This document shows, piece by piece, positions 2,628 to 58,032 of a DNA stretch of 64,000 bases (its first letter is position 1; each line of letters starts with the position of its first letter). The position numbers and the translations under genes were made by a program. Under the pieces are notes generated by a model, which saw only the letters and a list, made by a program, of their open reading frames with translations, ran no database searches and was not told where the DNA came from. The DNA comes from Octopus vulgaris. Lineage: Eukaryota. Location: contig OX597837.1 of assembly GCA_951406725.2 (NCBI GenBank), forward strand, positions 11,532,001-11,596,000. The letters are read 5' to 3'.

Positions 2628-2840
2628 TTCAAAATGTGACCTCGTGTGTACCGTTGGCGATTTTTTTTCCTCTGTCTTCCCTTCTCTGGATCTTTCCTTC
2701 TCCTATGTTTCCGACGAAGAGCTCCGCTCGAAACGTTAAATCCTCCTTCTTTCCTTCTTTCCTGAGCGTCCAATACTACTATATTTGTTCCACGTTCTCG
2801 CGTTGTTGTGTTTTTTGCGCTTTCTTGTTTGGATTAACTT
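2628..2840 (+). mobile_element. ~215-bp non-autonomous hammerhead-bearing element (solo pLTR / retrozyme-like) flanked by (TA)n
   Basis: Homologous to 10118-10327, 10426-10639 and 62241-62330 (minus-strand fragment); ends TTGGATTAACT followed by (TA)n. Confidence 0.7.
2708..2740 (+). ncRNA. Minimal type I hammerhead ribozyme motif (CCGACGA core variant)
   Basis: TTT-CCGACGA-A-GAGC(TCC)GCTC-GAAAC-GTT-AAA; stem III reduced to the palindrome ACGT. Confidence 0.6.
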
Positions 2841-2963
2841 TATATATATATATATATATATATATATATATATATATATATATATATATATACCGTAGTA
2901 AACACATAAATGTGAAACAAGGTGGAAAAAAGAGTACTCAAATACCAGGGGTAGAGTAATATG

Positions 2964-3121
2964 CTTTATTTAAAGCAGCAGAAAATTCAACAAAACCTGT
3001 TACTCTGAGTTTCACGTTCCCGTTCGTCGGACAGTTTTTGGTAGCAAAAACTGTCCGATGAACGGCAACGGGAAACTCAGAGTAACAGGTTTTGTTGAAT
3101 TTTCTGCTGCTTTAAATAAAG
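2964..3121. repeat. 158-bp near-perfect palindrome holding two opposed hammerhead motifs
   Basis: Arms 2964-3040 and 3045-3121, loop GTAG; each arm reads CTGT-CCGAYGA-ACG(GNRA)CGK-GAAAC-TCAGA-GTA-ACAG. Confidence 0.85.
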
Positions 3122-4056
3122 TATATATATATATATATATATATATATATATATATATATATATATATATATATATATATATATATATATATGCATGCAT
3201 GTATGTATATGCGTGTATATGTTTCATCCGTGAAGGATAAAATGTATTAAAACACATTTTAGTGTCAAAGTAGTTTTAAATTATAGTTATTGTTTCCTTA
3301 CAACCTGGCCGAGTTATTTTAACTTTTTTATACTCAGAAAAATTTAATCATTCATATAAAAGAATAAGTTTTTGAATTTTACGAAATATGTTTTATATCA
3401 ATCAGAATGATAATTCGTTGCGAAGAACAGTCAGAGGTCAGAAAAAACATAAGAATGTGTTGTAAATTAGATATAATAGAAAAAGAAGAGGGGAGAAATG
3501 TAAGATGGAAAAAGAAGAAGAATGGCAGGCGGAAGTTGGAGAGCAAGGTGTAAGACAGAGGAGTGAGAAGCATTGTTAAAGGAGATGAAAAAATATAACT
3601 GATCCGGAGTCTTGAAAATTGTCAAAAAGAAATCATTAAATATGAAAGGGTTAGGAAGAATTGTGAGATGGGGAAAGAAGAAAATAACAGACGCAGTAAG
3701 AGAAGAAAAACAAAAGACAGGGAAGAGAGGAGCATTGTTTGAGATGAAAAAAAATAAAACTTATCCGGAGATTTGAAAAATGTCAGAAAGAAATGTTTAA
3801 AAATGAAACGAGTATGATGGATTGTAGGTGTCTAGGGAAGAAGAAAGAATATTAATAATAATAATAATAATAATAATAATAATAATAATAATAATAATAA
3901 TAATAATAATAATAATAATAATAATTATAATAATAATAATAATGATAATAATAATGATGATGATGATGATGATGATGATGATGATGATGATGATGATGAT
4001 AATAATAATAATAATAATAATAATAATAATAATAATAATAATAATAATAATAATAA

Positions 4057-4516
4057 TACCAAAAACTGAGCAAATATAAAGATCTTGAAATAGAAATCAG
4101 CAAAATGTGGAAACTGAAGACTAAAACAATACCTGTTGTCATAGGTGCCCTGGGAATGATAGCGAAAGGGACTAATTGCTACCTAACTCAGATACCAGGA
4201 AACCCCAAAATGGCAGAAATTCAAAAGATAGTGCTCATGGGAACTGTTCATATCCTACACAAAATACTCTCTATGTAATCCCAAGGTTTAAAACAAACTT
4301 TCTTTTATTTATTTATTTATTTATTTTATTTTATTTTATTTTATTTTATTTTATTTTATTTTATTTTATTTTTATGTATTAGACATTCACTAGTACAACA
4401 TCAAAAAAAAAAAAACCCAAATATATGGCACAGAACTTCCAACCTGTTGTCTCTTGAGGTCTCTGGGTGAGACCTGGATCCAACTTGTACAGACATAAAG
4501 CAAAAGTCAAACATAG
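4057..4516 (+). mobile_element. 5'-truncated R4/Dong-clade non-LTR retrotransposon (C-terminus of restriction-like endonuclease ORF plus 3' UTR) inside (TAA)n
   Basis: 4057-4278 translates YQKLSKYKDLEIEISKMWKLKTKTIPVVIGALGMI...IQKIVLMGTVHILHKILSM*; (AAT)n on both sides. Confidence 0.8.
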
Positions 4517-5099
4517 AATAATAATAATAATGATAATGATAATGATAATGATAATAATAATAATAATAATAATAATAATAATAATAATAATAATAATAAT
4601 AATAATAATAATAATAATAATAAAGTAATGAGCAAAATAATCATAGAACGCAAAAAAATATGAAATATATAAAAACAGGTGCTGGAATTGCTATGTGGTT
4701 AAGAAACCCGCTTGCCAAGTATTTAGTTTCTGGTTCAATCTCACAGCTTGGTCCTACCAAAGCCTTCTGAATGACTTTGGTAGATGGAAACTGTGAAAGC
4801 CCCTCGTATGTGTGTGTTTACGAATCGTTGTCTTCTCATCGCCGTTTGACAACCAGTGCAGATTTGTTTACGCACCGTAACTTAGCGGTACAGCAAAAGA
4901 GATCGAAGATATGAGTATCAGACTTTAAAGAAACATAAATACAGAAATCGATTTGTTCGAATAAACCCTTCGAAGCGGTGCCCCAGCACGGCCGCAGTCC
5001 AACAAGTAAAAACAAAGGCAAATATATGATTTCAAAAAGAACCAAGGAATTTGGTTTTATAAACAAAATTTTAGTATAGACGGTTATAAACTGAATTAG

Positions 5100-5330
5100 G
5101 ATGTTTTCGAAATGATGCCAAGATCTCTGAATCTATGATAAAGGATTCCATGTTCAATATTGTCACAGGCTTTAACAAGAACAAAGTATATTTAGTTAGT
5201 GCCCATACACCTTAGAAGATTGTTAAGGATAGTGTTATGATGCAGGAAAAGATGTCTCAGGCAACCTTACCTTGTTTTAAAAATCTAAGAGGTTATTTTC
5301 CTAAGAGCAGTTGATTATTTTCTTTCGAAC
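5100..5330 (-). pseudogene. Decayed CR1/L2-like LINE reverse transcriptase fragment
   Basis: Minus strand reads IYFVLVKACDNIEHGILYHRFRDLGIISK, a decayed IYLDFAKAFDKVDHGIL..KL..LGI.GK motif; stop codons nearby. Confidence 0.55.
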
Positions 5331-55443: not shown

Positions 55444-55887
55444 TATTTGTTCAAGTCTGAAAAGAAAACCAGCAACTTCTATGGTCTCCTGGAAATGCGC
55501 AAATCAAAGGAAATTTGAGATGCAATGAAGAAACAAAACATTAAATACTTCAGGATTAATAGTCTGCTAAATTTTAAGTATTGCTACTGTAAGTTACTGA
55601 ATAGGAAAATACAATAAAACAATTCCTAATAGATTTTGTCAAGGGTTTATCAAGGGTTCGTTTTGGATTCTGCTAAGTGTATTCTAGAAAATAACACAAT
55701 CTATTCCGATGGAAAATTTTTAATCCAAATTCAAGGAAACGCCATGGTGACGAAAGTTGCACCAACTTATGAATTTATTGTTATAGATTTGTGAGGTAAA
55801 ATCTACCGCAAAAGGCCAAGGCTAAATTCAGTACTGACTTTGCCTGAGTCATCGTGGAAACGGTACCTAGAATATTGTTTTATCATA
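55444..55887 (+). pseudogene. Old decayed Penelope-like RT from a second lineage
   Basis: KTSNFYGLLEMRKSKEI (cf. FYGLPKIHK), ILENNTIYSDGKFLIQIQGNAMVTKVAPTY (cf. Q..GTAMG..AP.YA), WKRYLEYCFII (cf. RYLDDCFII); stops and frameshifts. Confidence 0.75.
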
Positions 55888-56060
55888 TCATATGTGCCAG
55901 AACAATTTTCAATGTTGGTAACACATGGGTGTAGCATTCCCATGAAAGGCAAGTATCTATGAATTAGAATATCTGAATATGCTAATAATTAGGAACGGAG
56001 CCAGAAGAAAAGCTCATCAGAATTCTCTGTACTTTATTTGTTGTATATATAATATATATA

Positions 56061-56292
56061 TATTTCTTTACTACCCACAAGGGGCTAAACATAGAGGGGA
56101 CAAACAAGGACAGACAAAGAGATTAAGTCGATTACATCGACCCCAGTGCTAAACTGATACTTTATCTATCGACCCCCGAAAGGATGAAAGGCAAAGTCGA
56201 CCTCGGCGGAATTGGAACTCAGAACGTAACGACAGACGAAATGCCGCTAAGCATTTCGCCCGGGGCGCTATCGTTTCTGCCAGCTCGCCGCC
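56061..56292 (-). mobile_element. Family B SINE (head plus one unit)
   Basis: Reverse complement of 49014-49245. Confidence 0.85.
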
Positions 56293-57632
56293 TTATATAT
56301 AATATATATATGTAAACATATAGATACATGCACACACGCACACATATACACATACAATTACATGTAATTATATACATGTATGTGTATGTGTGTGTAAGTG
56401 TGCGTGCGTACAAGAGTAGAATGAAACAAGATTTAGGTTTAATTTTTTTATTATAACTTCATAAATTACGATATAATGCTTGGCGGCATTTCGTCCGTGT
56501 GTATAGCCAAGATATTAAAAATAAGAATGAAGAACTATACAGCCTCAGAAAGTAATTTATCACACTGTTATATATACAATACAATTACTTTAAATCTCTA
56601 TCCTACACGCGTTCCTTCGCGTTATACAGCTCTCTATCTCTCTCCCTCCCTCATTCCTTCTTTCTTTCTTTCTTTCTATCTCTCTCTCTATATATATATG
56701 TGTTTGTGTCTGTGTGCATATATATATGTATGTATGTATATATGTATATATATATATATATATATATATATATATATATATATATATATATATTGTATTT
56801 TATATTTTATATTTTCTTTCTGTAACATATTTCTACTATATATATATATATATATATTAATATATATATGTATGTATATATGTATGTATGTATGTATGTA
56901 TGTATGTATGTATGTATGTATGTATGTATGTATGTATGTAAGTATGTATGTATGTATGTATGTATAAACGTTATGCTCGTACATCACAACGAATATCTCT
57001 TCTAAGAGGTTAAACCGGTATATAATTACATACTTAGAAACAATTAACTATGTCCTTTTGTATTTATTTGCTCCAGAGTGTTTGATAATGTTTTGTTTTT
57101 AAATGATTTCAATGAAAAAAAATGTATTATGTCATATGCAATCTGGCAATAATCTCATTGTAATAATGTCATTTGAATATGATATGATATTTTAGAACAT
57201 GTAATATTATATTTTCGAAATAATTTGATTGCGACAATTTGTTTGTGATTAGATATTCTTAATTTTTACAATGGTTTGATTGTAATCACAGACTTTAGAA
57301 TTAGTTAACTGCAGTGTAAAAGGAATGACGTATTTCTTCTTTTCATTGTTATTTTTCCTTATAAGGCGGTGAGCTAGGATAAAAGTGACTGCGATGGACA
57401 AAATGTTTAACGGCAGTTCGTCTTTCTTTAAGTTCTGAGTTCAAATTCTTCCGAAGTTGACTTCGTCTTTTATTCTTTCAGGGTCAAGCACTGAGATCGA
57501 TAGAATTGACTTCCATCTCCCCCGAAATTTGGGAATTAGGTATTAGAGAGAACGATTGAAAGAGAGAGAGAGAGAGAGAGAGAGATGAGACACGTGTTAT
57601 TTGTCTCTAAATAATTTGTTAATTGTTATGGC

Positions 57633-57705
57633 ACGGTTACTGATGAAGATTCGCCTAGCAAATTATTTTATTTGCTGAAGAAATCTGAAACCTAGGTATA
57701 ACCGT
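57633..57705 (+). ncRNA. Type I hammerhead ribozyme motif (best-formed in the window)
   Basis: ACGGTTA-CTGATGA-AGATT..TAGCAAAT(TATTTT)ATTTGCTG..AATCT-GAAAC-CTAG-GTA-TAACCGT; predicted cut after 57698. Confidence 0.88.
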
Positions 57706-57920
57706 AAAAAATAACAAGGTAAAAGTTTTTATTTTTCATTCCCTTCGAAAATTGCTCTTAAATGTGGTTTTGGTCGTTTTGACTGCTTCTTCTAGCGTTT
57801 ATATATGTATATAATCTGAAATTACTAAGGCTACAACCGCTATCAATCAACATTACCAAAACGCACATATCTGAGTGTCATTGGTCGACCAACACGGTGG
57901 AATGTAGCTTCTTTTGGAAA

Positions 57921-58032
57921 TTATCCCCTGATGAAATATTTAATTAACCAGTTTCAATATTAAATTTTTTAATTAATCTAATCTAATTTCTCTAATTGAA
58001 TTAATTGGATATGGAAACGGCTGTAAGGATAA
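57921..58032 (+). ncRNA. Type I hammerhead ribozyme motif
   Basis: TTATCCC-CTGATGA-A-ATATTTAATTAA...TTAATTGGATAT-G-GAAAC-GGCT-GTA-AGGATAA; core-proximal pairs mismatched. Confidence 0.7.

Follow-up and report, generated by a model that had tools for sequence, protein, structure and literature searches.

Why should a single stretch of octopus DNA hold hammerhead ribozyme motifs in such number and variety, and which elements carry them? The stretch in question is a 64,000-nucleotide window of Octopus vulgaris (assembly GCA_951406725.2, contig OX597837.1, positions 11,532,001 to 11,596,000), 34% G+C and rich in (TA)n and other microsatellites, in which relaxed and homology searches find 20 type I hammerhead motifs belonging to 13 sequence families. 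We propose, with a probability of about 85%, that these motifs are the 3' ends of many families of Penelope-like elements (PLEs), as is shown for a Hydra-clade and a Neptune-like family and is likely for most others, joined by a few short noncoding elements that likely borrow Penelope enzymes; cutting is predicted only when copies pair through the palindromes in their motifs. On this view most of the motifs are nothing more than retrotransposon stubs in decay, left by Penelope-like clades already described.

A preliminary description of the window had listed 18 motif positions, and each proves to be a hammerhead core with GAAA and a palindrome or near-palindrome; two further motifs, at 10825-10861 and 50981-51051, were absent from that list. 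Eight motifs satisfy a strict descriptor (stem I - CYGANGA - stem II - GAAA - palindrome - UH - stem I), with 8 to 9 of the 20 counted as strict over all scans. The remark that some motifs are decayed holds for those so marked in Table 1, but the CUGUNGA core (A6U) at 35720 is a family trait and not decay.

A young Hydra-clade element carries the hammerhead motif

The most direct evidence comes from family C, for which a first look at the genome gave 15,994 candidates; the 150 that were scored are 94 to 100% identical, many with an open frame of 717 amino acids. This single open reading frame (ORF) holds a reverse transcriptase with YKDD and then a C-terminal GIY-YIG domain, the whole unit being under 3 kb; the Pfam match to GIY-YIG is weak (residues 603 to 632, E = 0.013, below the cut-off). 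The protein carries RWK, DKT, a CxCX5C linker, CxxC, and CxH and lacks GxKF/Y, the pattern diagnostic of the Hydra clade, and among 120 listed homologues RWK/R occurs in 116, DKT/S in 119, and CxCx4-6C in 119. Based on these diagnostic motifs we assign family C to the Hydra-clade PLEs, its likeness to the published element Hydra-1_Obim being judged by eye; a Nematis-type assignment was rejected given the Hydra diagnostics.

Where does the ribozyme sit in such an element? Five intact loci place the motif some 250 nt past the stop codon, and in tandem copies it also stands ahead of the next start, at a distance of about 210 nt, in a unit of 2,590 nt. Intact copies, both tandem and inverted, have pseudo-long terminal repeats (pLTRs) with a hammerhead in each, and 26 of 28 copies end on (TA)n. 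We thus read the motifs at 21148(-) and 23097(+) of the window as the pLTR ribozyme of a young, intact Hydra-clade PLE, with cleavage predicted.

Contigs from four presumed RNA runs cover family C; they show no ends, strand, or level and are not used as evidence. On the + strand, one such contig (L061:7873-7959) differs by about 12 clustered T>C changes, with 15 other letters in 160. Such a pattern would result from A-to-I hyper-editing if inverted copies yielded antisense or double-stranded RNA; the contig may also represent a diverged copy. Separately, remnants of Hydra-type Penelope protein lie at window positions 103-264 and 11119-11319, with no listed motif nearby.

Links of the other families to Penelope-like reading frames

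The preliminary description had linked the motifs to PLEs, and the link is borne out not only by the family C pLTRs but also by the family I and 10825 motifs, which lie behind GIY-YIG. Among loci chosen by protein-coding DNA alone, the family I motif stands in sense about 400 to 750 nt behind a Hydra-type GIY-YIG in 21 of 30. A second young PLE group, obtained from a Pfam GIY-YIG search, has 781-amino-acid frames with GxKF, DKG, and CX4CxxC (by eye, Neptune-like), and in 21 of 30 of these loci the U3-A8 motif seen at 10825 stands in sense behind the GIY-YIG. Side observations in this group include an ORF of up to 479 amino acids that overlaps upstream (L394 to L399) and a tandemly repeated 3' untranslated region (UTR; L394). 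Outside the window, L176, L181, L401, and L405 hold further hammerhead families; these have U3-A8 cores combined with ACCGGT, or a CCGAAGA/AGTACT motif that follows a Neptune-like ORF.

Families D and B have weaker links than these. In L215 and L216, Hydra-type protein remnants stand upstream of D in the sense orientation, and L066 has them at the inversion junction; a B-type motif follows a Hydra-type GIY-YIG in 1 of 25 loci (L253, 703 nt), and related ACTC motifs do so in 8 of 25. D, I, and J all have a constant 3' end and variable 5' ends, and inverted partners often lie upstream of them. Two candidate links were rejected: in L207 the GIY-YIG next to a D copy is that of family I, and in L208 the one next to a J copy is that of another family. 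Pfam gave no matches to the broken ORF pieces of the window itself.

What, then, becomes of the earlier picture of a large unannotated community of nonautonomous elements or solo pLTRs drawn to microsatellites? Nonautonomous status suits the short families A, F, and H, but autonomous elements account for C, I, D, and the 10825 motif, which are their 3' ends with 5' truncation of variable extent. Nor is the kind unknown: the Hydra clade, with an Octopus member, such palindromes, and (TA)n targeting, was already in print. A bias toward (TA)n is found in A (25/25), D (16/30), J (14/25), and I (8/25), versus 2, 3, 7, and 2 in the respective controls, but not in H (4/25 versus 5). The distance in the window from H17 to the nearest (TA)n, with a median of 104 versus 274 (p = 0.036), lends weak support.

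Short families and the retrozyme alternative

Could the motifs instead be mainly independent, nonautonomous, retrozyme-like elements that spread as small (circular) RNAs, as the preliminary description suggested? Families A (25 loci) and F (30 loci) have the appearance one would look for: they are about 200 to 210 nt long, 95 to 98% identical, and end on (TA)n; their 5' starts cluster 70 to 85 nt (A) and 50 to 70 nt (F) ahead of the core; and no consistent ORF lies upstream in those 25 and 30 loci. Also in favor of this explanation are the (TA)n-spaced direct tandems of F (L289 and L300), a true 359-bp tandem array with seven motifs in our genome sample (L167), and a 2026 preprint whose accessible text argues for an origin of retrozymes in pLTRs (bioRxiv 10.64898/2026.07.22.740005). 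However, C, I, D, and the 10825 motif run into coding sequence, uninterrupted head-to-tail arrays hold no window motif (the head-to-tail hammerhead repeats of 150 to 450 bp by which non-LTR retrozymes are recognized do not occur in the window), and at most 7 of the 20 window motifs (A, F, and H) would be covered. As an account of the motifs in general we consider it doubtful, and we favor the 3' ends of PLEs, with A and F being either nonautonomous elements or a truncation hot spot of another element. The 5' ends of A and F are not significantly tRNA-like (p = 0.27 and 0.125, versus 30 tRNA loci of six amino-acid types), and a direct repeat of A in L211/L212 was set aside as two separate insertions in a duplicated segment without PLE protein.

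Family F raises a question of its own. All 26 copies placed by the parser, among the 30 loci, have U at position 6, and the family has reached at least 1,782 candidate places genome-wide. Changes at A6 lower hammerhead activity, the natural A6C case being of low activity (PMC3088659, accessible part), and F may thus cut weakly or not at all. No A6U hammerhead was found in the literature searched, which did not extend to Lunse et al. 2017 or Ferbeyre 1998.

In the sample array mentioned above (L167:2100-4760; G000:C1:20002100-20004760), which is set in (TA)n, every unit is 353 to 359 bp long and contains a hammerhead that has ACCGGT and a stem I of 6 bp. Five units are direct and two inverted, the inversion point lying at the palindrome, and this is the tandem arrangement expected of retrozymes.

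A tRNA-headed short interspersed nuclear element

Family H extends upstream through (AAT)n to a tRNA-like head with A and B boxes, and the H body lies behind the head in 24 of 30 loci. Compared with the genome's own tRNAs the head scores 48.5, the maximum in 200 shuffles being 40.5; the Rfam tRNA model does not match it. An inverted duplicate piece lies on the 5' side in 17 of the 30 head loci. Target duplications of 8 to 15 nt occur in 8 of 30 loci and in none of the controls, with boundaries unclear in about half, and in L309, L315, L316, L321, L325, and L331 the duplication encloses the whole inverted-plus-direct unit.

Is H, then, an ordinary tRNA-derived short interspersed nuclear element (SINE), mobilized by a long interspersed nuclear element (LINE), that has captured a hammerhead? 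Its head and its target duplications are what such an origin would leave, H shows no (TA)n bias, and no Penelope partner was found; indeed, no autonomous partner was found for any of the short families A, F, and H among the loci examined. Against this, the inverted 5' pieces and the duplications around the whole unit are the arrangement described for PLEs, and we regard LINE mobilization as unlikely. To judge from these sequences, H is a SINE whose insertions have a Penelope-type geometry, and Penelope enzymes likely move it. If that is true, SINE parasitism would not be confined to LINEs as partners.

Among known systems, the RNA polymerase III (Pol III) hammerhead SINE of schistosomes comes closest. 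Sm-alpha and Sj-alpha (review, PMC6765202, as far as accessible) share with H a Pol III-type promoter and a type I hammerhead in a short noncoding retroposon. In H the hammerhead is a minimal ACGT one, an (AAT)n spacer lies inside the element, and the copies are dispersed and have inverted ends of the Penelope type, whereas promoter and ribozyme form tandem arrays in schistosomes. A search outside Repbase and the 1994 octopus SINE paper gave no published description of H, and H may belong to the octopus SINEs already named. A 3' fragment that looks LINE-like by eye occupies window positions 43047-43490; it ends in (AAT)n and has apparently inserted in the (AAT)n spacer of H, parting head from body.

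A proposed mechanism and the points against it

By analogy with other hammerheads, we posit that two motifs pair through the palindrome and would then cut after H17, releasing a unit RNA. For eight palindromes of 8 to 9 nt, monomer hairpins are calculated at +2.0 to +2.4 kcal/mol and self-duplexes at -6.0 to -11.4. In family C, where the geometry is observed, predicted cuts at two successive motifs would release the 2,590-nt unit with the whole ORF. The GIY-YIG nuclease would nick (TA)n, and the reverse transcriptase would begin copying some 40 or 110 nt to the 3' side of the cut; because family C copies terminate about 40 or 110 nt past H17, the template would be uncut there or circular, that is, an uncut tandem RNA or a re-ligated circle. 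Copying would usually halt early, a second, inverted copy would often be added, and most stubs would then decay. Since the ribozyme adjoins the priming end, nearly every stub would retain it, which would explain the density of motifs.

Several observations weigh against this reading. No accumulation of 5' ends at H17 is seen among incidental copies of A, D, I, J, or H. In old copies the core has changed by 2.8% versus 5.3% in the flanks for D, 6.2% versus 9.8% for I, and 7.5% versus 4.8% for J; most copies thus look unselected, the core not being consistently better kept than the flanks. The link from D to PLEs consists of three loci with gaps of 1.5 to 2 kb, among the loci examined A, E, F, G, H, J, K, and L show no consistent link to an ORF, and J follows the neighboring GIY-YIG, which is another family's, in 0 of 25 loci. 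RNAalifold alone does not recover the hammerhead fold from a D/E alignment. In published work, minimal PLE hammerheads cut poorly even as dimers (PMC4209133, accessible part), and no cutting was seen in 8 of 9 dimers from Xenopus.

These points invite the question of whether the motifs are relics, the fold having been selected in ancestral elements and now either not cutting at all or serving as a protein-binding or dimerization signal. The spread of F to so many places despite its A6U core, with natural A6C of low activity, would fit such relics, as would the uncut site present in every integrated copy and the published Naiad elements, which thrive without hammerheads. Yet more than 10 unrelated hosts, and also the youngest family (97 to 99% identical), have retained the core, stem I, and the palindrome, and the Neptune-like family has a compensatory U3-A8 pair. 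We judge the relic explanation somewhat less probable than either alternative considered above and retain the view that these ribozymes are predicted to cut as pairs.

Statistical support and density in the genome

The preliminary description had proposed shuffled sequence as a control, and the motifs pass it clearly. In 60 global dinucleotide shuffles of the window the strict descriptor finds a mean of 0.03 motifs (maximum, 1), and in 60 block dinucleotide shuffles a mean of 0.02, versus 8 observed. Density was sampled in forty 10-kb stretches at round coordinates across the chromosomes (400 kb), which hold 22 strict motifs, 7 of them within one tandem array; five shuffles give 0 to 1. An Rfam scan of the window gave no hammerhead match at the gathering score, and by E value no hammerhead family was among the best 150 of 251 matches, the top rows being microsatellites that match microRNA models. 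Chance matches in AT-rich, microsatellite-rich DNA, with which this Rfam result would agree, are refuted by the shuffles of window and sample, and the families are multicopy.

Is stem III truly self-complementary, as the preliminary description held? When motifs were picked by core, stem I, and stem II alone in the window plus the sample (464 kb), 18 of 23 had a perfect palindrome and 22 of 23 had at most one mismatch, with 10 different palindrome sequences; the expectation per shuffle (15 shuffles) was 0.07 and 0.27, respectively. An alignment of 28 D/E copies is 93.8% paired with 7 double-change pairs, above shuffles, although kinship inflates these values and the structure was drawn from the same sequences. 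Palindrome variation across hosts is stronger evidence than D/E helix covariation. Within family D the palindrome shifts from ACGATCGT to ACGGTCGT to ACGGCCGT with pairing kept throughout, and column pair 90/91 is AU in 14 copies, GU in 12, and GC in 2, with no broken pairs.

Extrapolated genome-wide (2.80 Gb), the sample predicts 154,000 strict motifs (bootstrap, 70,000 to 273,000), or 112,000 (63,000 to 168,000) if the tandem array is counted once. The window is 2- to 3-fold richer than the sample (P = 0.03 or 0.005), having been picked for this richness. A homology search finds 49 motif pieces in the 400 kb, about 1 per 8 kb, with queries that include motifs from that same sample. The density of one motif per 4 kb given earlier is therefore right for the window if decayed copies are counted but too high for the genome, where there is one strict motif per 18 to 25 kb.

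Comparison with known systems

How much of this is new? The Hydra clade is known to target (TA)n and to carry hammerheads (Craig et al. 2021, PMC8557442), and the accessible text and files of that paper describe elements much like those here: a C-terminal GIY-YIG, RWK/DKT/CxCX5C, units under 3 kb, inverted 5' copies, and a 3' hammerhead with a self-complementary stem III of 3 to 4 bp. The files include the Octopus member Hydra-1_Obim and the stems actc-a-gagt, actc-g-gagt, and acca-a-tggt; File S2 assigns "actc a gagt" to Penelope-3_HM and "acca a tggt" to the Octopus member. Given these entries, neither the long palindromes nor the bias toward microsatellites nor the host group is new to print. 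What differs is that many families coexist here, one of them very young, that helix II spans reach 40 to 79 nt, in contrast to roughly 25 nt or less in the listed Hydra motifs, and that perfect 8-nt palindromes are common.

The minimal hammerheads of metazoan PLEs (Cervera and de la Pena 2014, PMC4209133, accessible part) are likewise similar: they have a minimal stem III of the ACGT type, an additional base ahead of helix II, and a U3-A8 variant, truncated elements leave solo motifs of them across the genome, and a dimer model is given; A6U, which marks a family here, is not mentioned in that part. Minimal-motif totals given there are 2,000 to 9,000 per genome (fluke, coelacanth, and frog), versus an estimated 110,000 to 150,000 here by a different descriptor. 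Other published hammerhead totals are >6,000 in coral, about 5,000 in mussel, and 126,247 in axolotl, whose genome is much larger than this one. All such comparisons are rough because our descriptor permits a longer helix II.

Animal non-LTR retrozymes (PMC7229834; bioRxiv 10.64898/2026.07.22.740005; both as far as accessible) resemble the short families as short noncoding repeats with type I hammerheads and as proposed Penelope derivatives, and the L167 array fits them by architecture. In contrast, the window motifs lie outside clean tandem arrays; no mollusc was sampled in the accessible part of the preprint.

No counts of octopus hammerhead motifs were found in print, nor, in the literature on octopus and cephalopod hammerheads, anything on these motifs beyond Craig et al. 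2021. For the density, the 40- to 79-nt helix II spans, the young fixed-end A6U family, and the tRNA-headed hammerhead SINE, no published description was found, in a comparison that left out Repbase, the 1994 octopus SINE paper, Lunse et al. 2017, Ferbeyre 1998, and the PMC4209133 supplements. Dimer cleavage of small PLE hammerhead variants is reportedly the subject of the 2017 work of Lunse et al.

What the motifs may mean

The role of the hammerhead in PLEs is called unclear in the literature. The young, intact tandem Hydra element gives a sharp prediction, a 2,590-nt RNA cut at H17, and the palindromes of 4, 6, 8, 9, and 11 nt form a natural series for the dimer model and for family recognition codes. 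Could family-specific palindromes decide which RNAs pair and cut in trans? Taken together with an H SINE mobilized by Penelope rather than LINE enzymes, with fixed-end A6U mini-elements, and with one of the densest animal ribozyme populations reported (>100,000 intact motifs), this is a combination that we offer tentatively, at somewhat under even odds.

Features of the window

Table 1. Hammerhead motifs and host elements in the window, by position. Motif coordinates run from C3 to H17; "strict" marks intact motifs that satisfy the strict descriptor.
Feature	Position	Strand	State	Remarks
Family A minimal hammerhead	2711..2737	+	strict	ACGT; ~210-nt element, clustered ends, 3' end on (TA)n
Family B hammerhead	3001..3030	-	strict	ACTC-A-GAGT; left arm of head-to-head pair
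Family B hammerhead	3055..3084	+	near-intact	right arm of head-to-head pair; weak stem II
Family A copy	10192..10218	+	near-intact	palindrome ATGT (G.U)
Family A copy	10507..10533	+	decayed	G8 lost; predicted dead
U3-A8 core variant	10825..10861	+		TTGATAA, ACATGT; Neptune-like 3' end
Older family C relative	12965..13016	-	decayed	broken core; palindrome ATTC-A-GAAT
Family C 5'-truncated Hydra-clade element plus inverted shorter copy	21066..23252	.		both 3' ends abut (TA)n
Family C minus-strand arm	21066-22628	-	frameshifted	reverse transcriptase, linker, GIY-YIG
Family C hammerhead	21098..21148	-	strict	CCGAAGA, ACTC-A-GAGT; 99-100% identical to pLTR motif of intact elements L061-L065
Family C inverted shorter copy	22629-about 23252	+
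Family C hammerhead, inverted arm	23097..23147	+	strict
Family D hammerhead	33137..33212	+	strict	57-nt helix II; ACGATCGT
Family F hammerhead	35720..35747	+	A6U core	CTGTAGA, ACGT; ~200-nt element, clustered ends
Family G hammerhead	35880..35953	+	near-intact	55-nt helix II; ACATGTGT; relatives ACACGTGT
Family E hammerhead	40969..41046	-	decayed	D relative (~70% identical); stem I disturbed
Family E inverted partial copy	~41134-41212
Family H tRNA-like head	42790..42886	+		A and B boxes; short inverted piece in front
Family H hammerhead	43547..43582	+	strict	CTGATGA, ACGT
Family H second body copy	43806..43841	+	near-intact	behind (AGA)n; weakened stem I
Family L hammerhead	50981..51051	+	A9 changed	52-nt helix II; ACAGCTGT; intact relative in L184
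Family I hammerhead	51256..51351	-	strict	77-nt helix II; ACAATTGT; 3' UTR of Hydra-type element
Older family F relative	54581..54608	-	decayed
Family J hammerhead	57640..57698	+	strict	40-nt helix II; ACCTAGGT; variable 5' ends, inverted partners
Family K hammerhead	57928..58025	+	decayed	79-nt helix II; ACGGCTGT
Family B hairpin remnant	62655..62846	.		inversion point at GAAA/palindrome; lacks 5' core

Two other kinds of repeat were seen in the window. A fragment of reverse transcriptase with an LRFADD motif at 34771-35325 (-) is one that we take to be from an RTE-like LINE. An abundant SINE-like repeat of about 185 bp occurs at 52943-53404, where it is in tandem, and at about 15 other places (e.g., 24942-25128 and 49011-49179).

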